The notes beneath the pieces are model-generated. The model saw only the letters and a program-made list of their open reading frames with translations, ran no database searches and was not told where the DNA came from. Shown piece after piece: positions 49,782 to 64,000 of a DNA stretch of 64,000 bases (position 1 is the stretch's first letter; each line of letters begins with the position of its first letter). Source of the stretch: an uncultured Planctomycetota bacterium (GTDB lineage: Bacteria > Planctomycetota > Planctomycetia > Isosphaerales > Isosphaeraceae); the NCBI GenBank assembly GCA_963737655.1, contig CAVTTN010000002.1, positions 6,464,001-6,528,000 of the forward strand. Direction: 5' to 3'. The position numbers were made by a program, and so were the translations under genes.

Positions 49782-50654
49782 ATGCCCCGCCTGGATTTCC
49801 GAGACGCCCGCTGCCTGGTCACGGGGGCCTCGACGGGCCTGGGCCGGGCCCTGGCCGCCGAGCTCGTCCGCCGAGGGGCCCGGGTCGCGCTCGTGGCCCG
49901 GAACGAGGCCCGCCTGGACCAGGCCCGAGCGGCCCTGATCGCCTCGGGGGCACCGGCCGCCGCCGTCCTCCCCATCGTCGCCGACATCACCTCCTCCGAC
50001 GACCGTTCCCGCCTTTTTGAAACGATTGACCACCATTTCGGAACCGCGCTGGACCTGGCGATCAACAACGCGGGCCTCGGCGCCTACGGCCGGTTCGAGA
50101 GCCACGACGAATCGGTCGCCCGCCGCCTCTTCGAAACCAATGTCTTCGGCCTGATGGAGATCGCGCGGGCCGCCCTGCCCCGCCTCCGCCGAGGACGGCC
50201 GGGCCGGACCCTGGTGAACATCGGCTCGATCGTCGCAAGGCGAGGGCTGCCAGGACGTTCCGAATACTCGGCCAGCAAGTTCGCCGTGACCGGCTTCACC
50301 GAGGCCATCCGGGCCGAATGGGCCCGGGACGACATCCGGGTGACCCTGATCAACCCCGGCTTCACCGCCACCGAGTTCGAGAAGAACCTCGTGGTGGACA
50401 CCGCCGTGTACAAAACCCAACAACGCCGAACGATGACGGCCGAAGCGGTGGCAAGAGCCACGCTCAAGGCCATCGAACGCGGCAAGAACGAGGTCACGCT
50501 CTCGCCCGGCGGCCGGCTGATGGTCCTGACCAACCGCCTCCTGCCCCGATTCGTGGACTGGGGCCTCTCGCGATGGACCAAACGCCTCTACAACGAGGCC
50601 GAAGCCGCCGAATCCCGACCCGAGCCAATTGCCGGGGCCCCAACCCACCCTTAG
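49782..50654 (+). CDS. SDR family NAD(P)-dependent oxidoreductase
   Basis: TGASTGLG, NNAG, YSASK. Confidence 0.95.
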   Translation: MPRLDFRDARCLVTGASTGLGRALAAELVRRGARVALVARNEARLDQARAALIASGAPAAAVLPIVADITSSDDRSRLFETIDHHFGTALDLAINNAGLGAYGRFESHDESVARRLFETNVFGLMEIARAALPRLRRGRPGRTLVNIGSIVARRGLPGRSEYSASKFAVTGFTEAIRAEWARDDIRVTLINPGFTATEFEKNLVVDTAVYKTQQRRTMTAEAVARATLKAIERGKNEVTLSPGGRLMVLTNRLLPRFVDWGLSRWTKRLYNEAEAAESRPEPIAGAPTHP

Positions 50655-50667
50655 AATAAGCCGCCCG

Positions 50668-50739
50668 GGGCGATTAGCTCAGTCGGTAGAGCCCTGCTTT
50701 ACACGCAGGATGTCACAGGTTCGAGTCCTGTATCGCCCA
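50668..50739 (+). tRNA. tRNA-Val(TAC)
   Basis: Acceptor GGGCGAT/ATCGCCC, D arm, anticodon stem CCTGC/GCAGG with loop TTTACAC, T arm ACAGG-TTCGAGT-CCTGT; CCA not encoded. Confidence 0.97.
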
Positions 50740-50809
50740 CTGGAAGTCTTTATTTAACAAGGGTTTGCAATTATTTCGGCGAGTTCTAGTCCGCATGCCT
50801 TTTCCGCAG

Positions 50810-50975
50810 GATGATGCGACCGCGGCGCGGACCTTGTCCAGGCCCATGGCTCCGATCAAGGTTACCGACTCCCTTGACGGCGCTGCTGACGACGCGACCC
50901 GTTCCCCTCGCGGGTCTCGGCCTCCAGGCGTCATGGCCGATGTGACCCCGGTCTCGTCCACGAAAAGAAGCCCTG
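50810..50975 (-). pseudogene. IS630-family transposase fragment
   Basis: FVDETGVTSAMT..GRDPRGERV..ESVTLIGAMGLDKVRA matches the first-Asp region of IS630 DDE domains; the rest is missing. Confidence 0.78.
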
Positions 50976-51286
50976 ACGGGACATCGAAGCCGATCGAGGC
51001 CTTCCTGATCGAGGATCGAAGCGGTCCCTCCAGGTCAAGGGTCAGCCGAATCGGTCGGGGCCCGGAGTTCGAGTGGCCGGTGATCGTCAGGACGTTGAAA
51101 AGGAACCGGACGGCGAGTTTCGGTCGAGAGACCTCACGGTGATCGCCATCACATCCGAGAGGCGGCAGTCAGAGGCCCCCCTCTTTCGCAGGGTGCTCCG
51201 CAACGGAACCGAACAACAATGAGGGGCCGGAACGCTCGATAGGAAGCGTCCCGGCCCTTGCGATAAGTCCGGCACGTCGCGAGATT

Positions 51287-54200
51287 CTACCTCGCGATGG
51301 GGCGTGGTCCGTGTGCTCGATGGTTATTGGTTTTCGACACCGGAAGGACCCCTTGGGGCGTGGCGGCCCGCGCGACGACCCGGACCGCGGCGGCATGGGC
51401 GGCCTTGAGGGCGCTCTTGTGCGGGACCACGACGGTGTGCTTCTTGCCTGCGTTCGGGGTTCCGAGCGGGTGCTTGGGCGACGCGTCGCCGTTCGGGGCC
51501 TGCCACGTCGTGAAGACCTTCTGTTGGGACCCTTGGAGCCCGATGACGAAGTCGCCGCCCGGTTTGTTGTTGCCCGAGCCAAAATACCCGTAGAACTCGC
51601 CGTCGAGGGCGTTGCCCGCGACGTCACGCAGGCCGTTGCCGGACAGCGTGCCTGCCCCGTCCGCGGAGTCGATGGTCAGGAGGAAACGGCCGCTGCCGAG
51701 AGCCGTGCCGTTGTCGATCGCGATCGTCAAGGTCTGCCGGTCGGTCGGCAGAGACGCGGGGGTCGCCGACAGCGAGGTCATGGGGTAAGGCGACTTGGTT
51801 GTCGGGTGCCCCGGTGCATACGCGCCAAAATGGTAGTTCGCCTTGTCGACCAGGGCGGTCTGGTCAAGCCCGGAGCGGTCGTCGGCCGCGGTCACGATGA
51901 TTCGTCCCTGCTTCCGGTTGAACTGAAGGCTCAGGACCTTCGGCCCCACCGTGTCGATGACGAGCTGCTGCGGCACGTAGGCGACGGCCACCGTCTGGCC
52001 GGAGGCGTCCGTGGCGGTGACGCCGATCGTGTAGACGCCGTCCGCCAGCGGCGAGTTGATCGGCACCGTGAACCGGCCGTCGGCACCGGTGGTGGCATGA
52101 CCCACCGGCGTGCTCCCCGAGGCCGAGATCGCGAACAGTTGGATCGTCGAGCCGGGCTCGGACCCGCCGAAGAAGCTGGGCGTGTTGTCGTTGGTGATGC
52201 CGTCGGAGTTCGACACCCCGTGGTCGTCCGCCGGGTTGAGGATCACGGAGACGTTGATGGGGACATCCGCCACCGCCGCGGTTCCGGCGAGGGCCAGCCC
52301 CTGGCCGCCGTCGTCCTTGACCGTGACGCTGATCGGGAACATGCCCGTGCCGTTGGCGTGGGCATCCGCATAGGTGTGGCTGCCGGTGATGACGAAGGCG
52401 GTCCCGACACCCCCCGGCTGGCTGATGCCGCCGAGGCTGGTGGTGCCGTCGCCCCACGAAATCGTGGCGGTGAAGTCGCCGACCGAACTGGAGGGGTTGG
52501 TGTCGTGGAACGAGCCGACCAGGACGTTCGAGAGCGGGAGCCGTTCGGTCGCCGAGAGGTTCGGCGTCGCGACCGGGACGAGGGAGGCGTCGGAGACGAG
52601 CGCGACGTTCGCCGTCATGGCTCCCCCGGACGGGTTGTCCAGGTCGCTGATCGCAACGTGGACGACGTAGCTGCCTGGTTCGGCATACGTATGCGACGGG
52701 GCGAGCACGCTGTAGCCCGTGGCACCAGACCGGATGCTGCCTTCGACGGCCGGCGAGCTATCGCCCCAGTTGATCGTCGCCGCGAAGTTGCCGATCGGGG
52801 CCAGGTTGTCGCCGTGATCGAAGGTCGCGATGACCTGGCCGGCGACGGTGGCGAGCCCTTCCGTCGTCGAGATCGGCAAGGCCGTGGCGGCCGTGATCCG
52901 CGAGGCCAGGACCGTCGCCTGGGAAGTGATCGTCGTGCCCGCCCCGCCCGAATCATTGACGGTGACGGTCGCGGTGAACGTGCCCGCCCCGGCGTAGGTG
53001 TGGTTGCCGAAGACGCTAAAGCGCGCTCCGGCGCCGAGCCGCCGACCAGGACCACGTTGCCGGTCGAGGGGGCTGTGTCGTCGCCCCAGTCGATGGTGGC
53101 CAGGAAGTCGGCGGCTGACGCCGCCCGGTTGCCGTCGACGAAACTTCCGAGCGGCACGTTGACCAGCGGCGCGGCTTCGGCCGTCGTCACGGCGACGCCC
53201 GACGCACCGGAGAGGGGCGCGTCGAGGACGATGGCCAACGTATTCGTCTGGTCACGGTTGCCATCCGTGTCGACGACCGAGGTCCGGATGACGAACGATC
53301 CCTCCTCGGCATAAGTGTGGCTCCCCTGGACCACGAAGTTGCCCGAACCGTTGCCGGGCACGATGGTGCCGACGGACGGCAGGGTGTCGTCACCCCAATC
53401 GATCGTGGCGACGAAACCCGAGGTCGTCGCGCCCGGCGAGCTATCGGTGAACGTGGCGACGATCGCGCCGGTGAACCGCGTCCCTTCGATCGTATCGATC
53501 CGCGATCCCGGACTGAGCACCGGCAGGATGGGCGCGGCCGGCTTGACCGCCACGAGGTTGCCGCCGATCGCCGAGGACGGCGATTCGCTGATGGTCAGCT
53601 TCAACGCGTAGCTGCCCGGGTCGGCGTAGGTGTGGCCGACGCTGGAGGAGACACGGAAGCTCGTGCCACCCAGGGAGATGATCTCGACGGACTTATCGAC
53701 GGGCGACCCGTCTCCCCAATCGATGCTCGCCGAGTACTGGCCGACCGTATCGACCCCCAGGGCGTCGCTGAACGTCCCGATCACCGTCTCGGCGGGGATT
53801 GCGGTCCCTGCGGTCGCCGTCTGGGGCAGCACGGCCACGCTCAGGGTGGACTGGGCGACCGTCACGTTGGTCGATTCCGGGGCGATCGTCAGCGACTGTC
53901 CCCCGATGTCGTTGACCAGGACCATCGTCGCGAAGCTGCCCGGCGATTCGTACGTGTGCGAGCCGTACACCGCGAAGATCGCCCCGGCGGCGGTCCCGCC
54001 GATCCGCACGACCTGCATGTTGGTGTCGATGCCCGAGACATCGCCCCAGTCGATCGCCGCGACGAAGTCGGCCTCGGTCGCATTCGGGTTGGCGTCGACG
54101 AACGTCGCGACCGGGACCGAATACAGGGGCACGTGCTCGGCCGCAGAGACCGGGAGCGACTTGCCGGTCGTCAACGGCGCATCGAGGACCGAAGGGACCC

Positions 54201-57200
54201 GGGAAGTGGCGATGGACGTATTGTTATAGGCGTCGGTGACTCGGACGGTGATGGTGTAACCGTTCGGGCCCGCGTGGGCGTAGGTGTGGCCGCCACTGAC
54301 GATGAAGTCGGTGCCGACGCCGTCGGGCTGGGTGATTGTGCCGACGGTCGAGGGCGTGCCGTCGCCCCAGTCGATCACGGCGGCGAAATCACTAGCGCTA
54401 GCGGTGGGATCGCCGGAGGTGAAGCTGGCGACCTGAGTTGCCACCGGGATTGGCTGCCCCTCGGTCGCGCCGATCGCGCCGGCGGTGGAAGCCGTCAGCG
54501 AGGCGGCGGTCACCACCGCCGAGCCGTTTCCGATGCCGAAGATTGCGAAGGTGTCGGCGACATAAACCGTGATGGGATAAATCCCGGGCTTGGCGTAGGT
54601 GTGCGTGGGCGCGGAGATGGAGTACATGCCATCCGTCATAAACATTGGGTCGATTGTAGCCGGCGTGGATTGGCCGTCGCCCCAGTCGACAAAGGCTTGA
54701 TAGTTCTCCACGGGATCGGCTCCGCCCGCGTCGAAGAAGACGCCGACGGTCTGGTCGGGGGTCGGCGTGGCGGCGACGGCGCTGATCGAGAGGACCGAGA
54801 CCGACAACGGAGTCAGCGTGATCGACGCGGTCGTGTCGATCGTCGTGGTCTCGCCGCCCGAATCGGTCACGGTGATGGTCACCATGTAATGCAAGTCAGT
54901 CACCGACGTGTAGACGTGCGAGCCGCTGACGGCGAACTTCGCGTTGCTCGCCGTGCCCCCGACCAGGGTGGCGAAGCCGGTATCGGCGGGCGTCCCGTCG
55001 CCCCAGTCGATCGAAACGGTGAAGTCGGCGGCCGTGGCGAGCGGGTTGCCGTCGAGGAAGGTGCCGAGCGGGATGTTGGAGAGCTGCTGGCCCTCGGCCG
55101 CCTGGAAGGGGAAGGCGGTCGGGCTGCTCAATGGCGCGTCGGCGACCGAGGTGATCTGGGTCGTCGCGACGGACGCGTTGTTGAAGGCGTCGGTCACCCT
55201 CACAGTCACCGTGTAGCCGCCCGCCGTCTCGTGGGCGTAGGTGTGACCGCCGTCGACGAGGAATGCGGTGCCGACGCCGCCGGGCTGGGTGATGGTGCCG
55301 ATGGTCGAGGGCGTGCCGTCGCCCCAGTCGATCACGGCGCTGAAGCCGGCGACGGCGGCGGTCGGGTCACCCGAGAGGAATCTGGCGACCTGGGTTGAGC
55401 CAGGCAGCGGCTGTCCTTCGACTGCGCCAGTGATCGGGTTGCCGTCGAAGACCGTCAGCGAGGCGGCGGCGACCACAGCCAGACCATTTCCGCTGCCCGA
55501 AGTCGTGCCGGAGTCATCGACGGTGACCGTGGTGGGATAGAGTCCCGGCCTGGCATAAGTGTGCGCCGGCGCGTTGACGTTGAACAGGCCCGGTTGACCG
55601 GGGACGGCCGTGATCGTGACCGCCTCGGACGTGTCGTCGCTGGTGCCATCGCCCCAGTGGACGGTTGCCGAATAGTTCCCCACGGGATCGGCACCACCGG
55701 CGTCGAAGAAGGTGGCGATGACCTGACTGGCGGTCGGGGTGGCGGCGACGGCGTTGATCGAGAGGACCGAGACCGAAAGCGGTGTCTGCGTGACCGTCGC
55801 GGCCGTGTTGATGGTCGTGGTCGCGCCTCCCGAATCCGTCACCGAGACGGTGACCGCGTACGGCGAGCCCGCCGCCGAGGCATAGACGTGCGAGCCGCCG
55901 ACGGCGAACTTGGCGTTGCTCGCCGAGCCGCCCACCAGGGTGGCGAAGCCGGGATCGCTGGTGGTGCCGTCGCCCCAGTTGATCGACACGGCGAAATCGG
56001 CGGCCGAGGCCAGCGGGTTGCCATCGAGGAAGGTGCCGAGCGCGATGTTCGAGAGCTGCTGACCTTCACCCGCCCAGATCGGGAACCCCGTCGGGCCGCT
56101 CAGCGCCGCGTCGGTGACCGTGATGGAGGTGGTATGCGCGGCCGTCGAGCCGTTGAGATCGGCCACGTCGACGCTGAGGGTGTAAGGGGTGCCGCTGGTG
56201 TGTTCGGGGTAGGTATGGATGCCGCTCACGGTGTAGGTGGCACCGCTCTTGACGATCGTGCCGAGGCTCGAAGGACTGCCGTCGCCCCACGAAATCGTGG
56301 CGGTAAATTCGGCGGCGGTGGAATTGGGGTTGCCGTCGGTGAAGGTCATCAGTGCGATGGCACCGGTGAAGTTCACCCGGGCCCCCTCGGTGACCGACGC
56401 CGACGCGATCCCGCCGGTGGTCGTCAGAGGGGCGTCGGCAACGGTCGCGATATTGCCGCCAAGTCCGGTGGACGTCCCGTTGACGACGGTGAGCTTCAGA
56501 GCGTAGGTGCCGGGCGTGGCGTAGGTGTGCCCGTTTCCGGTATCGACCCGGAAGGCCGAACCGCCCAGGGCGGTGATGACGACGGACGTGTCGGGGGCCG
56601 ATCCGTCACCCCAATCGAGCGAGGCCGAGTAGTTGCCTACCGGATCGGCTCCGGCGAGGTCGAGGAAGGTCCCGACGGCCGTTCCCGAGAGGATGGCGGT
56701 CGCCTCGGTCGCCGTCTGAGGCAACGCGGTCACGCTCAGGGCTGACTGCATGACGTTCGCGTTCTCCGAGCCCGGCGTGATGGTGAGGGTCGAGCCGTCC
56801 TGATCCGCCACGTTGACGACGATCGAGTAGGAACCCGCCGCGTCGTAGGTGTGCGTCCCATAGACCGCGAAAATCGTCCCCGAGCCACCGCCGCCGACGA
56901 GGACCACCTCGGCGTTGGAATCGATGCCTGAATCATCCCCCCATTCGATCGTGGCGGTGAAGTCGGTCGCGGTCGCAAACGGGTTGGTGTCGACGAACGT
57001 CCCGACCGGGATGGACACCAGCGGCTGATGCACGACCGACGAGACCGGCAGCGGCGTGCCCGTGGTCAGCGGGGCGTCGGCGACCGAGGTGACCGGGGTG
57101 ATGGCGACGGACGAGTTGTTGAAGGCGTCGGTCACCCGCACGGTGACGGAGTAGCCGCCTTCGGCCCCGCGCAAGTAAGTGTGGCCGCCGCTGACGAGGA

Positions 57201-59813
57201 ACGTCGTGCCGACGCCGCCGGGCTGGGTGATGGTGCCGATCGTCGAGGGCGTGCCGTCCCCCCAGTCGATCACGGCGCTGAAACCGGTGATGGCGGCGGT
57301 CGGGTCACCCGAGAGGAAGCTGGCGACCTGGGTCTGGGGGGCGAGCGGCTGCCCTTCGACTGCGTCAGCAATCGGGATTCCGTCGGAGGCCGTCAGCGAG
57401 GCGGCAGCGACCAGGGCGAACCCATTGCCGCTGCCCGACGTCGTGCCCGAGTCAACGACAGACACGCTGATGGGATAGAGCCCGGGCGTGGCGTAGGTAT
57501 GTGCCGGAACGGTGACGGTGAACAGGCCCGGCTGCCCGGAGACGGCGGAGATCGAGACATCCGGGAGCGTGTTGCTGGTGCCGTCGCCCCAGCTCACGAA
57601 CGCGGAGTAGTTGCCCACCGGATCATTACCGCCGGCGTCGAAGAAGGTGGCGATGACCTGGCTGGAGGTCGGGGTGGCGGCGACGGCGTTGATCGGCCTG
57701 GCGTAGACCGAAAGCGGCGTCTGCGTGACCGTCGCGGCCGTGTTGATGGTCGTGGTCGCGCCTCCCGAATCGGTCACCGAGACCGTCACCGCGTACGGCG
57801 AGCCCGCCGCCGAGGCATAGACGTGCGAGCCGCTCACGGCGAACTTGGCGTTGCTCGCCGAGCCCCCGACCAGGGTGGCGAAGCCGGGATCGCTGGTGGT
57901 GCCGTCGCCCCAGTTGATCGACACGGCGAAATCGGCGGCCGTGGCGAGCGGGTTGCCGTCGAGGAAGGTGCCGAGCGGGATGTTGGAGAGCTGCTGGCCC
58001 TCGGCCGCCTGGAAGGGGAAGGCGGTCGGGCCGCTGAGTGCCGCGTCGGTCACCGTGATGGCCGATGTGTGCGTGGCCGTCGAGCCCGCGAGGCTGGTCA
58101 CGGTCACGCGGAGGGTGTAGGGCGTGCCGGTGGTGTGCTCGGGGTAGGTGTGGATGCCGCTCACGGTGTAGGTGGCACCGCTCTTGACGATGGTGCCGAG
58201 AGTCGCCGGCGAGCCGTCTCCCCAGGAGACCGAGGCAGTAAATCCGGCGGCGGTGGAATTCGGATCGCTATCGGTGTAAGTCATCAGGGCGATGGCGCCG
58301 GTGAAGTTCACCCGGGCCCCTCGGTGACCGACGCCGACGCGATCCCTCCGGTGGTCGTCAGAGTGGAGGCGGCGGCTCCGGAGACGAGTGCGAGGCCGTT
58401 TCCGATGCCCGAGGTCGGGTCAGAGTCATTGACCGAGACCGTGAGCGGATAGAGCCCGGACGCGGCATACGTGTGCGCCGGCGCGTTGACGTTGAACAGG
58501 CCCGGTTGCCCGGAGACGGCGGTGATCGTGACGGCTCCGGTCGTGTCGTCGCTCGTGCCGTCGCCCCAGAGAACGTTGGCGGAGTAGTTGCCCACCGGAT
58601 CGGCGCCACCGGCGTCGAAGAAGGTGGCGATGACCTGGCTGGAGGTCGGGGTGGCGGCGACGGCGTTCATGGAGAGGACCGAGACCGAAAGCGGCGTCTG
58701 CGTGACCGTCGCGGCCGAGTTGATGGTCGTGGTCGCGCCTCCCGAATCCGTCACCGAGACCGTCACCGCGTACGGCGAGCCCGCCGCCGAGGCATAGACG
58801 TGCGAGCCGCTCACGGCGAACTTGGCGTTGCTCGCCGAGCCGCCCACCAGGGTGGCGAAGCCGGGATCGCTGGTGGTGCCGTCGCCCCAGTTGATCGACA
58901 CGGCGAAATCGGCGGCCGTGGCGAGTGGGTTGCCGTCGAGGAAGGTGCCGAGCGGGATGTTGGAGAGCTGCTGGCCCTCGGCCGCCTGGAAGGGGAAGGC
59001 GGTCGGGCCGCTGAGTGCCGCGTCGGTCACCGTGATGGCCGATGTGTGCGTGGCCGTCGAGCCTCCGAGGTCAGTCACGGTCACGCGGAGGGTGTAGGGC
59101 GTGCCGGTGGTGTGCTCGGGGTAGGTATGGATGCCGCTCACGGTGTAGGTGGCACCGCTCTTGACGATCGTGCCGAGACTACTGGGGCTGCCATCGCCCC
59201 AGGAGATCGAGGCGCCGAATTCGGCGGCGGTCGAGTTAGGGTTGCCGTCGGTGAAGGTCATCAGGGCGATGGCGCCGGTGAAGTTCACCCGGGCCCCCTC
59301 GGTGACCGACGCCGACGCGATCCCGCCGGTGGTCGTCAGAGGGGCGTCCTCGACCACTGTGCTGCTGGTGATGAGGCCGTTGGTGGAGTCGGATTCGTCG
59401 GAGACCGTCACCGTGATCGGCTGGGAGCTGCTGCCGGTCTCCTCGGGAAAGGTGGTTCCACCCGTGACGCTGTACTGGGGCACGGCCCCCACGTTCGGCA
59501 CGAAGACGCTGCCGATCAGATTGATCGTGCCGACGGACGAAGTCGGCGTGGCCGTCGGCCCCCAGTTGATCGTCGCCGACAGGCCGCCGAGGGCGGAAGA
59601 GCTGGCGAACGTCCCGACCACCGCGCCGGCGAACGCCGTCCCTTCGACCGGGCTGGGCGCCATGATCACCCCGATCGGGTTGTCAATGGTCAGCAAGCAG
59701 CGATCTTCCAGTCGCTCGAGGAGGAACCGTCCACGACACTTCGTCGGATGACCGACCGAATTCCTCGTCGTCCGACCCTTCGCCTTCTGTGACTTGCCTT
59801 GACCCTGCGTCAT
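51287..59813 (-). CDS. Giant secreted adhesin-like protein (~2,840 aa) of tandem Ig/PKD-like domains; frameshifts at ~58318 and ~53035
   Basis: LERLEDRCLL leader; more than 20 repeats of 'F.A.I.WGDG...V.G.HTY'; DGITNDNTP..G..EPGSTI Big-type domain; LRDVAGNALDGEF..SGN..PGGDF C-terminal motif. Confidence 0.9.
54500..59340 (-). repeat. Near-identical ~1-kb intragenic duplications
   Basis: Three-domain block at ~59340-58380, ~58360-57410 and ~56430-55470, with a partial copy at ~55135-54500. Confidence 0.88.
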
Positions 59814-60293
59814 CGCCGTGACTCCCTGGAGATCCGCCAGCCTGGAACCGCAAATCCTCGCGAACCGCGCGACGAACCACCCGGAGCGAGCGAAGCTCGT
59901 TCGTCGAGAAAGTGGTATTGCGTCCGACGCGCAGAGGCTCAGACGATCAACCGATTGGCAGGTGTAGCCCCTGGGCCACGCGCTCGGTGTTTCGGGGCCG
60001 ACTCTGTTCGGTTCGCGGGCACTTAGGGGGAATCTAGAACAAGGATTGTCACGGGCCAGCTAATTAATTAATAGCGGATATGAATGCATGTTTTGTGCAA
60101 CTTCTTCGATAAATACCCTCAAGCTTCCCTGAACTCCGACATCCAAGAGAGGCAGAGAATGGCAGGGTTACGGTCTAGCGCCTTCGGAATTGGCGAGGAA
60201 ATCTGGAATTCCTGCAAACCATCAAACACGCAACGCGATTTTCTAAAGCATTGTGTCAAAGAAAGTTGTGTCACGCGGGCGAGCAATCCTCCG

Positions 60294-60340
60294 CCTGCTT
60301 CACACGCAGGATGTCGGGGGTTCGAGTCCCTCATCGCTCA
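60294..60340 (+). pseudogene. tRNA-Val(CAC) 3' fragment (att-like)
   Basis: cctgc-ttCACac-gcagg atgtc ggggg-ttcgagt-ccctc atcgctca; no D arm upstream. Confidence 0.88.
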
Positions 60341-60721
60341 TCGCAACCCTTGATTTGACAAGGATTTGCCGCCGTTCGTCGGCCGCCAGGGCACCTGCTC
60401 TCAGGCCAATCGGCTGGCCCGTAGAGGAGGGCCCTCGCCGATTGGGGCGCGAGAGGTGCGATCGACCTAGCGTGGTCGTTGCCAATTACCGGTCGGTCCG
60501 CACGCGGCTCAGGCGTGACACCGATCGATCCGACGTTCAAACTCTTGGCCAAATGTTGATATTACGAATGTGTCCCGATGCGACGCACGATCGCCGCAAG
60601 TTGCCCCGCCTCGGCGCTCATCGCTGTGACCACAGGTCGCGGCATGGTTACAATCGCTGCCGGCGACGGGTGGCGATCTACGTTGGACTACCCCCGATGC
60701 GCCACGATCTCGGAGTCAACC

Positions 60722-61375: not shown

Positions 61376-62950
61376 TCAGGGCGAGGCCAGGGCGTCCAGG
61401 ACGGCATCGAAGGCGGGCTTGGGCTTGAGGGCCCGGTCCCAGAGCAGCGGGTGATTGGTGCGGCCGGCGACCGGCCAGGAGTTCAGCCAGGATGCGCCGT
61501 CGTGAGGGCCCCAGAAGGTCACTCGCGTGACCACGCCGGGGTGCTTCCGGACCGCCCGGAACAGACGCCCGTAGAAGCGGGCCTGGGCCTCGGCCACCTC
61601 CGGCGGTAGGCCGTCCCGATACGGGTTGGCCCCGCCCTGCTCGCGGGCCGCGACGTCGGCGCCGCCGTCGCGACGCGGTAAGACATCCACATCCAGCTCG
61701 GTGATCATGACCTTCACGCCCTCGGCCGCGTAGGCCGCGATCGCGCGGTCGAGCCGATCGGGGGCGTCGGCGTCGGCGAGCTTCATGTGGCACTGGAGCC
61801 CGACCCCGTCGAGGCGCACGCCCCGGGCCTTCAGCTCGCGGATCAGGCGGATCGTCTTCTCGAGCTTCTCGGGCTGCTCGTTGCTGTAGTCGTTGTAATA
61901 CAGCTCGGCGTCGGGGTCGGCCGCGTGCGCGAGCTCGAATGCCTTGACGATGTAGTCGTCGCCGATCGCGCGGCGAGCCGGCGTGTTGCGGAGGTATTCG
62001 CCCTTCGCGTCGCCGATCGCCTCATTGACCACGTCCCAGCCGATCACCTTGCCCTTGAAGTGGCCCATGACGGCGTCGATGTGGTCCTTGAGATTCTTCA
62101 GGGCCTCGTCGCGTGGCAGCGGCTTGCCGTCCGGGCCTCGGAACAGGAAGGCGGGCGACTGGCTGTGCCAGCAGAGGGTGTGGCCGACGACCTTCATGCG
62201 ATGGCGTTGGGCGAAGTCGACGATCTTGTCTGCCGGGGTGAAACGGAACTCGCCCGGCCGCGGGTGCAGGGAGATCGGCTTGAACTCGTTCTCGGCGGTG
62301 AGGCAGTCGAACTGTTCGGCGATCAGCGCCGCCAGGGGCGGGTTGTCCAGCTGCCGCGACGAGACCGCCGTGCCGACGAGGAATCGGCCCTTCGCGGCCT
62401 CTCGCAGGGACCGCGGCGCCGCGTCGTCCCCCGCCGTGGCGCGGACCTCCTCGCAGGCGAGGTAGCCGCCCGGAGGCGCTCCCGAGAAGCGGACGCAGGC
62501 GATGGCCGACGCCTTCACGGCCATCTCGAAGCTGGGGATCGGCTGCTCCGGCCCGGTCCGCTCCGGCACCCTGTCCCGGGATGCCCGGTCCAGGAGCTTC
62601 CCGTCGGCGTCGAACGCCTCGACGACCGCCTGGCTGCCGATCGAGCCCCAGAGCACGAGGGTGACGGCCGTCACCGGCTTCGGGAAGCGGACATCGACCG
62701 GGATCGACTCGTCCGCCATCGCGTTGAGGAGGCCCTTCCTCGGCGTCTTCAGGTGGGGGAAGAACATCACCTTCCCGGCGGCGCGGTTCCTGGTCGGCGG
62801 GCGCGACGGGGCGAACACGACGCCCTGCTCCTCGTAGCTCGGCATCGGCTTGCCGGCCTGGGCAGCGTCGAAGGTGATGAGAGTCGGGCCGTCGGCGGGC
62901 GCCCCGAGGCTGCCGAGGACTACCAGGGCGATCGAGAGGGCGTGCGTCAT
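61376..62950 (-). CDS. GH10 endo-1,4-beta-xylanase with extra N-terminal domain
   Basis: TAENEFK, GHTLCWHSQ, WDVVNEA (acid/base), YYNDY, ITELDV (nucleophile), TFWG. Confidence 0.95.
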   Translation of the reverse strand: MTHALSIALVVLGSLGAPADGPTLITFDAAQAGKPMPSYEEQGVVFAPSRPPTRNRAAGKVMFFPHLKTPRKGLLNAMADESIPVDVRFPKPVTAVTLVLWGSIGSQAVVEAFDADGKLLDRASRDRVPERTGPEQPIPSFEMAVKASAIACVRFSGAPPGGYLACEEVRATAGDDAAPRSLREAAKGRFLVGTAVSSRQLDNPPLAALIAEQFDCLTAENEFKPISLHPRPGEFRFTPADKIVDFAQRHRMKVVGHTLCWHSQSPAFLFRGPDGKPLPRDEALKNLKDHIDAVMGHFKGKVIGWDVVNEAIGDAKGEYLRNTPARRAIGDDYIVKAFELAHAADPDAELYYNDYSNEQPEKLEKTIRLIRELKARGVRLDGVGLQCHMKLADADAPDRLDRAIAAYAAEGVKVMITELDVDVLPRRDGGADVAAREQGGANPYRDGLPPEVAEAQARFYGRLFRAVRKHPGVVTRVTFWGPHDGASWLNSWPVAGRTNHPLLWDRALKPKPAFDAVLDALASP

Positions 62951-62953
62951 GGC

Positions 62954-64000
62954 TCAGGCCACCTCCAGGCCGGTCATCGTGCTTGTCGAGGGGCCGAAGC
63001 CGGCTTCCTCGATCCCCATCCTCCGGAGCATGGAGACGAACAGGTTCGGCAGCGGGTAGTTGCGTCCGCGGTCGAAGGCCAGGTGCTGGCCGTGGCGGAA
63101 GCCGCCGCCGGCGATCAGGGTCGGCAGGTTCGTCGTCGAGTGCGCGTTCGCGTCGCCGAGATTGGAGCCGTAGAGGACCATCGTGCGGTCGAGCAGCGCC
63201 TCGCCGTCTTCCCGGGCGGACTTCAGGCCCTTGAACAGGTCGGCGAGCAGCTTCATGTGCCATTCGTCGATGGTCTTGAGCTGCGTCAGCTTCTCCTCGG
63301 CCATCCCGTGGTGCGAGAGGTTGTGATAGCTGTCGGTGATCGTCGCGCCGGGGATCTGCACGACGGGCGTGCCGACGCTGTTGAGCATCAGCGTGATCGC
63401 GCGGGTCGAATCGGTCTCGAAGGCGAGGCGCGCGAGGTCGTACATGACCTGCACCCTGGCCATGTACTGGGCCGGGCTGGCCGGGTCGGTCGGCGGGCTG
63501 GCCTTGACCTTCGGCTTGGGCTTCTCGGCCCAGCCTCGCGACTCCTGGAGCCGGTGCTCCAGGTCGCGGACCCCCGAATAATACTGGTCGAGCCGGGCCC
63601 GATCGCGGGCGCCCACGCCCCGCCGAAGGTCCCTGGCCTGCTCGGCGACCGCGTCCAGGATGCTCCGCCCCGCGTCGATCTCGCGGATCTGCCGCTCGAT
63701 CTCGGCGGGCGTCCCTTGCAGGAAGAGCTGCTTGAACACCCCGGACGCCTGGCCCTCCGGCGGGATCGCGACGCCCGTCCGCGTCCACGACAGGCCGCGG
63801 CCGCCGTTGACCGCCAGGGTGAGCGACGGGAACCTCGTCAGCGTGCCGATCCTTTCGGCCACGAGCTGGTCGAGCGAGATCGAGTTCCGGAACGAGCTGC
63901 TGGCCGGGTGAGGGGCCGCGGTGAGGAAGCAGATGTCCGACGGATGGCCGCCGTCCACGAACGGGTGGGACACGCCGCTGAGCACGGTGAAGTCCGCGCG
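62954..64000 (-). CDS. DUF1552 domain protein (5' end outside window)
   Basis: [46 protein letters not shown]. Confidence 0.92.

Follow-up and report, generated by a model that had tools for sequence, protein, structure and literature searches.

A probable relic of an integrated element at tRNA-Val(TAC) in an Isosphaeraceae genome, with candidate IHF-type palindromes on its two arms

Islands that integrate into tRNA genes have been catalogued by Islander, and the available text of its description (PMC4383910) states that the island restores the tRNA gene, that tandem arrays are known and that 2,083 of 3,919 islands are centred on the anticodon; the rule for the overlap in the anticodon loop is given in the accessible part of PMC8371274. 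At the mycobacteriophage Boilgate attP and attB-4, in tRNA-Lys-TTT, a differing allele takes the place of the tRNA's 3' half, as described in the available part of PMC10865867. Here we analysed a window of 64,000 nt (the whole stretch of DNA considered, to which positions refer) from an uncultured planctomycete of the family Isosphaeraceae (assembly GCA_963737655.1, contig CAVTTN010000002.1, positions 6,464,001 to 6,528,000). It holds an intact tRNA-Val(TAC) gene and a displaced tRNA 3' fragment downstream of it, both on the + strand and spaced by 9,601 bp, and we estimate at roughly 85% the probability that they frame what is left of a tyrosine-integrase element whose insertion point was the anticodon loop of tRNA-Val(TAC). 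The features on which this reading depends are:

49782..50654, + strand: SDR-family gene (Pfam adh_short), the synteny anchor directly 5' of tRNA-Val(TAC) in relatives
50668..50740, + strand: resident tRNA-Val(TAC) (ARAGORN call), with host 5' half and anticodon at 50700-50702; putative left attachment site (attL)
50715..50731, + strand: foreign T-arm ACAGG/CCTGT of the resident gene, presumably supplied by the element
60292..60340, + strand: displaced tRNA 3' fragment with host-type T-arm and a C at the wobble position, 60301; putative right attachment site (attR)

As in the class A islands of PMC4383910, insofar as that text defines them, an intact tRNA is followed within 2-200 kb by a downstream 3' fragment in the same orientation. 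Unlike those islands, the locus has no integrase gene inside or overlapping it, so that Islander's filter would reject it, and there are 8 nt of difference between its resident and displaced halves, the whole T-stem included. The element is thus classed as a probable relic that worked like a tRNA-integrated island and not as a member of the Islander definition: what the earlier note on this DNA had called an island keeps its paired att-like copies, but has no integrase between them and a host-like GC content (0.64-0.70). With respect to Boilgate, which the available text of PMC10865867 presents as an active phage with an integrase, the element here is dead, the swap comprises a full compensated T-stem, and the wobble base of the fragment is different as well. 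The likeness to phage lambda attP, judged from the site inventory in the available part of bioRxiv 10.1101/2023.05.26.542337, lies in the order of the parts: a core, a candidate bending-protein site and then, in relatives of the present locus, triple direct repeats.

The repeat which the earlier note had reported between 50693-50739 and 60294-60340 was recovered by a whole-genome blastn search (E 3.7e-7), ungapped and with 39 of 47 nt the same. Its eight differences are those that had been listed, namely the wobble base (T at 50700, C at 60301), six bases of the T-stem (ACAGG/CCTGT in the resident gene, GGGGG/CCCTC in the far copy) and acceptor position 71, where the far copy has a C-to-T change (60338 T). 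Identity of the fragment to relatives' genes begins at 60292, corresponding to tRNA position 25, and the resemblance of both copies runs about 30 nt beyond the tRNA ends; in 56 other Val fragments of the family, identity starts at the anticodon stem or loop. Such a start of identity is that of a putative crossover in the anticodon loop. For the resident gene a cloverleaf fold is obtained (z -3.9). With 28.6 bits against the Rfam tRNA model, the far copy falls just below the cut-off of 29 bits, and reading it as a D-armless tRNA was rejected for its lack of a cloverleaf fold (z -1.07). It corresponds in all essentials to the integration-derived tRNA fragments mis-annotated as tRNAs that the accessible text of PMC9897764 describes, as an attR fragment of that kind. 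No second, older Val fragment was found downstream in the source genome.

The earlier note had proposed that integration replaced the host 3' half, and comparison with relatives supported it. Scanning of 23 loci with an SDR orthologue yielded 7 with a tRNA behind the SDR gene, and in 7/7 of these relatives this tRNA is a Val(TAC) with a GGGGG/CCCTC T-stem, that is, with the fragment's T-arm. Three of three same-genus genomes combine TAC with the fragment-type T-arm as well (in one of them, G002, the SDR gene is not adjacent to Val(TAC)). The fragment shows 2 mismatches in 49 nt to the same-genus Val(TAC) genes of G001 and G003, and the resident 3' part shows 6 mismatches in 47 nt to same-genus Val(TAC) genes; the latter is identical over 47/47 nt to a Val(TAC) gene of the Phycisphaerae (L054). 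Among the Val genes fetched from the family, a non-random sample of 50 Val(TAC) and 41 Val(GAC), the GGGGG/CCCTC stem occurs in 43 of the former and ACAGG/CCTGT in 19 of the latter, where it is the commonest stem. Because relatives' alleles match the T-arm of the fragment, we take the fragment to be the host half, displaced, and the arm of the resident gene to be foreign; six T-stem changes that yield an existing allele are not drift. Two further genomes show the same layout, with an ACAGG resident gene and a GGGGG fragment, both TAC: in G460 the copies are 28.6 kb apart and in G464 2.6 kb, and each fragment has a palindrome (described below) at -52. Integrases lie directly behind Val genes in other genomes (e.g. 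G519, G511, G476, G443, G007 and G022). Altered resident T-arms are also present in G444 and G459. At locus L205 of G459 only one half of the T-stem of the resident Val(TAC) is swapped, which leaves it mispaired (GGGGG/CCTGT); this is what one would expect had an ACAGG-type element exchanged strands in the T-loop.

The ancestral gene at this place was therefore a TAC gene with a GGGGG/CCCTC stem. An element with an ACAGG/CCTGT arm in its attP would then have crossed over in the anticodon loop, the host keeping its 5' half and anticodon and receiving the T-arm and the acceptor 3' strand of the element, still pairing. The same arrangement might have arisen without an integrase, had the tRNA been duplicated locally and another Val gene then donated its T-arm by gene conversion. 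This would draw on the commonness of ACAGG/CCTGT among Val(GAC) genes, and the source assembly offers no Val(GAC) gene for comparison. The two same-genus Val(GAC) genes seen, however, have GCAGG/CCTGC rather than ACAGG, the fragment lacks its 5' half exactly as att fragments do, and duplication would not supply the palindrome at -52; we regard this origin as very unlikely. No tRNA-Val(GAC) gene was found in the source genome, though in the three genes counted Val is encoded mainly by GTC; most likely the gene lies in a gap of the assembly, which is unclosed (3 contigs, 87.7% complete).

The earlier note had further suggested that the host gene was a Val(CAC), converted to Val(TAC) by integration and leaving its CAC half behind. 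The fragment does have CAC, intact Val(CAC) genes with the anticodon stem of the fragment exist (in 3 genomes of a 401-genome phylum sample, on a 767-bp family contig of G487 and at 14 metagenome loci), and a mismatched overlap segregating to the tRNA side would make an anticodon switch mechanically possible. Conversion is nonetheless already contradicted by the 7/7 syntenic relatives and 3/3 same-genus genomes, all of which have TAC. In addition, Val(CAC) is a separate gene in the family, with a GGTGG 3' stem in 30/30 loci inspected (the CAC pattern was matched in 99/120 family genomes), and a genome-wide check located it intact in the source genome at C2:109696. None of the 14 metagenome Val(CAC) genes has the T-arm of the fragment (5/14 have an ACAGG T-stem), and all 40 of 40 genome matches to the exact foreign arm carry TAC. 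We consider a conversion the least probable of the alternatives, next to impossible. As far as these comparisons reach, TAC is the ancestral anticodon at the SDR-adjacent locus, decoding identity was unchanged and the locus is an ordinary insertion scar. An integration that switched the decoding identity of a tRNA would have been striking; this is not the case here, and the locus is instead a clean example of the known replacement of a 3' half. Some CAC-like matches were discarded along the way: those in G474, G003, G001 and G477 were tRNA-array genes on the opposite strand (His by our reading), and those in G466, G457, G485, G486, G498, G463 and G481 had no T-arm.

The far copy could also be a passenger att from another locus, unrelated to the history of the resident gene. 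No integrase joins the two copies, and some relatives have Val fragments on contigs away from the Val gene. The case foreseen by the earlier note, a passenger derived from an intact Val(CAC), failed, since both the anticodon stem and the T-stem of C2:109696 differ; the far copy matches the ancestral allele of this very locus and not the resident Val(CAC). It is downstream and in the same orientation, the palindromes around it are in their usual registers, and the foreign arm of the resident gene would still need explaining. A passenger origin thus appears highly improbable.

On the reading as an insertion scar, the C at the wobble position of the fragment would come either from the crossover side of the element, which we slightly favour, or from later drift like that of C71T, which is only a little less probable; neither origin alters the working gene. 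Drift is favoured by a second change in the fragment, one that is plainly damaging, and by the fact that the exact donor arm accompanies TAC. The element is favoured because differences between fragments and genes are enriched at positions 32-34: 11/168 against 35/2,184 at positions 35-73 (p 0.0003), a biased comparison, since the nearest full gene served as the reference for the right side. When natural loop variants were treated as matches, 7/168 remained at positions 32-34 (p 0.027), and hand counts in the 23 fragments whose left identity is long, as it is here, gave 3/69 against 13/897 (p 0.10). The wobble base is changed in 3 of the 56 other family Val fragments (CAC in G524, TAC at a GAC locus in G457 and AAC in G468) and one further fragment reads TGC. 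Anticodon differences in att fragments are common, which should serve as a warning. Also on the side of an element origin, left arms that look alike by eye occur at TAC, GAC and CAC loci, and an ACAGG T-stem is present in the 5/14 metagenome Val(CAC) genes mentioned above. According to the available text of PMC10865867, mismatches in the overlap usually block recombination, but there are integrases that accept such mismatches or may work with an overlap of reduced length. Three independent fragments (L195/L220, L234 and L243) have the loop TCTACAC, one change away from both the TAC and the GAC loop, possibly a compromise attP for two isoacceptors. The Val(GAC) genes have peculiarities of their own: 39 of the 41 fetched (e.g. 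L178-L216) have the loop TCGACAC, in which C replaces the usual U at position 33, and G519 (L203), G520 and G024 each have three tandem full-length copies about 165-175 bp apart, in G519 with palindrome-like sequence after each copy.

Both arms of the relic carry a 29-bp palindrome, which we regard as a more interesting by-product of the analysis than the att scar. It was described by a matrix trained on 208 flanks of Val genes and fragments from other genomes, with the source genome excluded and with symmetry imposed during training, and scored at 63,972 positions of the window. The three best sites, and the repeat that overlaps one of them, are:

50741..50769, no strand: 29-bp palindrome (11-7-11), candidate IHF-type site on the inner arm of the element; 18.0 bits, rank 1
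60242..60270, no strand: 29-bp palindrome, candidate IHF-type site on the other arm of the element; 15.6 bits, rank 2
60251..60273, + strand: TTGTGTCA pair, one copy in the centre of the palindrome and the other overlapping its right end
60342..60370, no strand: 29-bp palindrome after the fragment; 14.5 bits, rank 3

The learned consensus is CgTAAgTCcTT, 7 free bases and AAgGAcTTAcG. When 43 sites were picked by their left half alone, a good right half was present at spacer 7 in 27 of them, against 0-4 at other spacers; genome-wide, half-sites formed 86 pairs at spacer 7 and at most 11 at any other spacer. The site at 60242 stands at -52 from the anticodon stem of the fragment, the modal offset among relatives' fragments (22 of the 30 scoring above 8 bits), and sites of this kind follow 47/96 full genes and 25/56 fragments at the loci fetched. 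The presence of a palindrome behind the fragment suggests that an older element once occupied the same site, with the displaced piece as its inner junction. The genome has 91 sites of at least 14 bits, and because most of these are far from tRNAs or integrases, a host protein is pointed to. Of eight matrices with shuffled columns, one still found 38 sites in the genome against the 91 real ones, so composition accounts for part of the count. Sites are enriched near sigma54-like promoters (4/35 against 13/700, p 0.007). The matrix could help to map integrase-less islands in the family. Six other tRNA genes among the 43 scored on C2 are directly trailed by a palindrome (11.5-18.4 bits), namely Arg(ACG), Pro(CGG), Gln(CTG), Cys, Gly(CCC) and Arg(TCG), probably marking old or current integration scars.

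Each half of the palindrome fits the IHF core YAANNNNTTR, and the best-strand match to the IHF consensus WATCAANNNNTTR comprises 8 (50741 site), 7 and 7 of 9 specified bases. In sequence, the palindrome resembles a doubled IHF site. The source genome has a single gene for an IHF-beta-like protein (C2:2909589-2909855, L259), which aligned to 1IHF chain B keeps the positions Arg42, Glu44, Arg46 and Val70, the IHF-beta residues listed in the available part of bioRxiv 10.1101/2024.06.24.600358. The protein is 78-89% identical across four genomes of the class, and 7 of the 8 canonical matches fetched from five relatives are of the same beta-like type, the other being HU-like; G519 and G511 have two paralogues each. 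No IHF-alpha was detected in the source genome, whose second PF00216 protein is without the R-x-E-x-R motif, and the beta-like protein is below both NCBIfam IHF cut-offs, its best score being 87.5 bits against a cut-off of 115. With neither a detected heterodimer partner nor a score above the cut-offs, the predicted protein is classed as IHF-like and not as IHF. A homodimer of it would give a symmetric site. The lambda site, bound by the alpha/beta heterodimer, is asymmetric, unlike the sites here, which are palindromic within single sites; on lambda attP the matrix, against a flat background, scores highest at the site that bears the consensus and lies 33 bp to the right of the core, though the match is weak. 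We suppose that the palindromes on both arms would bind a host DNA-bending protein, most likely this IHF-beta-like protein, in the role of lambda's H sites.

Alternatively, the palindrome may be bound by the integrase or by an unrelated dimeric regulator, or the TTGTGTCA copies may be a true pair of arm sites that overlaps it. The 11-7-11 layout also suits a dimer of a tyrosine recombinase, the IHF-like protein scores below the cut-offs as just described, and triple repeats of relatives, such as TTGTACCA and TGTGACGA, resemble TTGTGTCA. Against these options stand the many strong sites far from tRNAs and integrases and their enrichment near promoters; the triple repeats of relatives, moreover, are outside the palindrome. 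The TTGTGTCA copies at 60251 and 60266 are, as the earlier note had it, present, and are the sole close pair among 15 genome copies. Their proposed role as integrase arm sites probably does not hold, given the overlap with the palindrome and the absence of TTGTGTCA from the tRNA-side arm; no 7-mer was shared between the 130 bp and 190 bp examined on the two arms. All in all, these alternatives taken together seem doubtful, though far from negligible. A weak triple repeat at 50776-50808 could represent arm sites of the relic element.

A broader proposal, which we offer tentatively and as somewhat less than an even bet, is that a lone planctomycete IHF-beta-like homodimer reads a fully palindromic, doubled IHF site and that this site scaffolds tRNA-targeting integration complexes on both arms, and that related elements move between the Val genes of all three isoacceptors by strand exchange immediately 3' of the wobble base, thereby shuffling T-arms, sparing the host anticodon and leaving the wobble base of the element in the fragment. 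Whether IHF-beta lacking an alpha partner homodimerises and binds DNA specifically is a question left open in the available part of bioRxiv 10.1101/2024.06.24.600358, and the conservation of the beta-like protein, combined with the strict spacing of the palindromic site, opens it to a direct test. Our literature search, which did not extend to subscription papers or supplements, found no description of planctomycete tRNA att sites or of a planctomycete IHF site, and the accessible portions of PMC4682653 and PMC5683647 contain nothing on the palindrome motif in planctomycetes.

Between the two copies lie a transposase fragment and a single cargo gene:

50815..51145, - strand: fragment of an IS630-family transposase, decayed and with an internal deletion, at the position taken by the integrase in the elements of relatives
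51287..59813, - strand: giant PKD/Ig-like repeat protein gene (Pfam PKD, PKD_4, Big_13), the only cargo

No integrase was found between the copies: the genome has 14 PF00589 matches, none within about 180 kb, and tblastn with its own and 21 relatives' integrase open reading frames gave matches only where the query overlaps the tRNA. One candidate remnant, matching the tail of the G467 integrase (50692-50928, E 5e-5), was rejected, as the tRNA overlap had driven the match and the remainder is IS630. A search of solved structures with a relative's integrase returned no match at E 0.001. The IS630 relic shows 58% identity over 69 aa (E 1.7e-18) to a homologue that passes NF033545, with matches at the DNA level too; only residues about 39-78 and 129-196 of 313 align as protein, and the element ends were not found. 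The assembly has no intact close copy of this transposase; the C-terminal part (residues 240-313) of a similar one is at C2:5214863-5215099, 1.3 Mb off. In the last step of the proposed history the integrase would have been lost, possibly by an IS630-linked deletion, stranding the PKD/Ig-like surface-protein gene. This gene would encode about 2,840 aa if it is one gene; it is split into three open reading frames by two apparent 1-nt deletions, and a G-run at the first of these breaks lacks one base relative to two copies of the repeat within the gene. Its family is multi-copy, with paralogues in the source and related genomes.

Several observations weigh against the reading of the locus as an integrase-borne relic or against the role given to the palindrome. 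Without an integrase, recombination itself cannot be shown. The cargo has a host-like GC content (0.86 at third codon positions), and at L237 in G002 a distant PKD/Ig-like gene (29% identity) is convergent behind Val(TAC), where the 16 kb read contain no fragment; the cargo may thus have arrived separately from the element. The comparison genomes include no same-species empty site, no shared downstream synteny that would define a true empty site was seen within C2 6.38-6.72 Mb, and all three same-genus Val(TAC) genes are trailed by a palindrome-like old scar. Nucleotide 26 of the resident tRNA, between the D stem and the anticodon stem, is absent from the assembly, which the insertion model leaves unexplained. 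It is probably an assembly error; one base is likewise missing at the D/anticodon-stem junction in 4/93 family genes, and 2/48 test genes were split, which bears against such an error. As to the palindrome, the strict pattern gave 36 sites at spacer 7 in five genomes of other families, against 15 at spacer 9 and 24 in the reversed control, and the best match of the matrix on lambda attP is a weak one of 5.0 bits, which comes first of 773 when the background is flat and third when it is local.

Beyond the fragment, the window contains GH10 glycoside hydrolase and DUF1552 genes (61376-63985) that are not syntenic in the relatives read and are possibly cargo of an older element. Elsewhere in the source genome we noted odd tRNA-like sequences at C2:6624238, C2:52385, C2:4658944, C2:5970410, C2:7114446 and C2:1543087, a set comprising an Ile(TAT) call, an atypical 'Leu' call, a weak Ser-like match, two Gly fragments and a Lys fragment.

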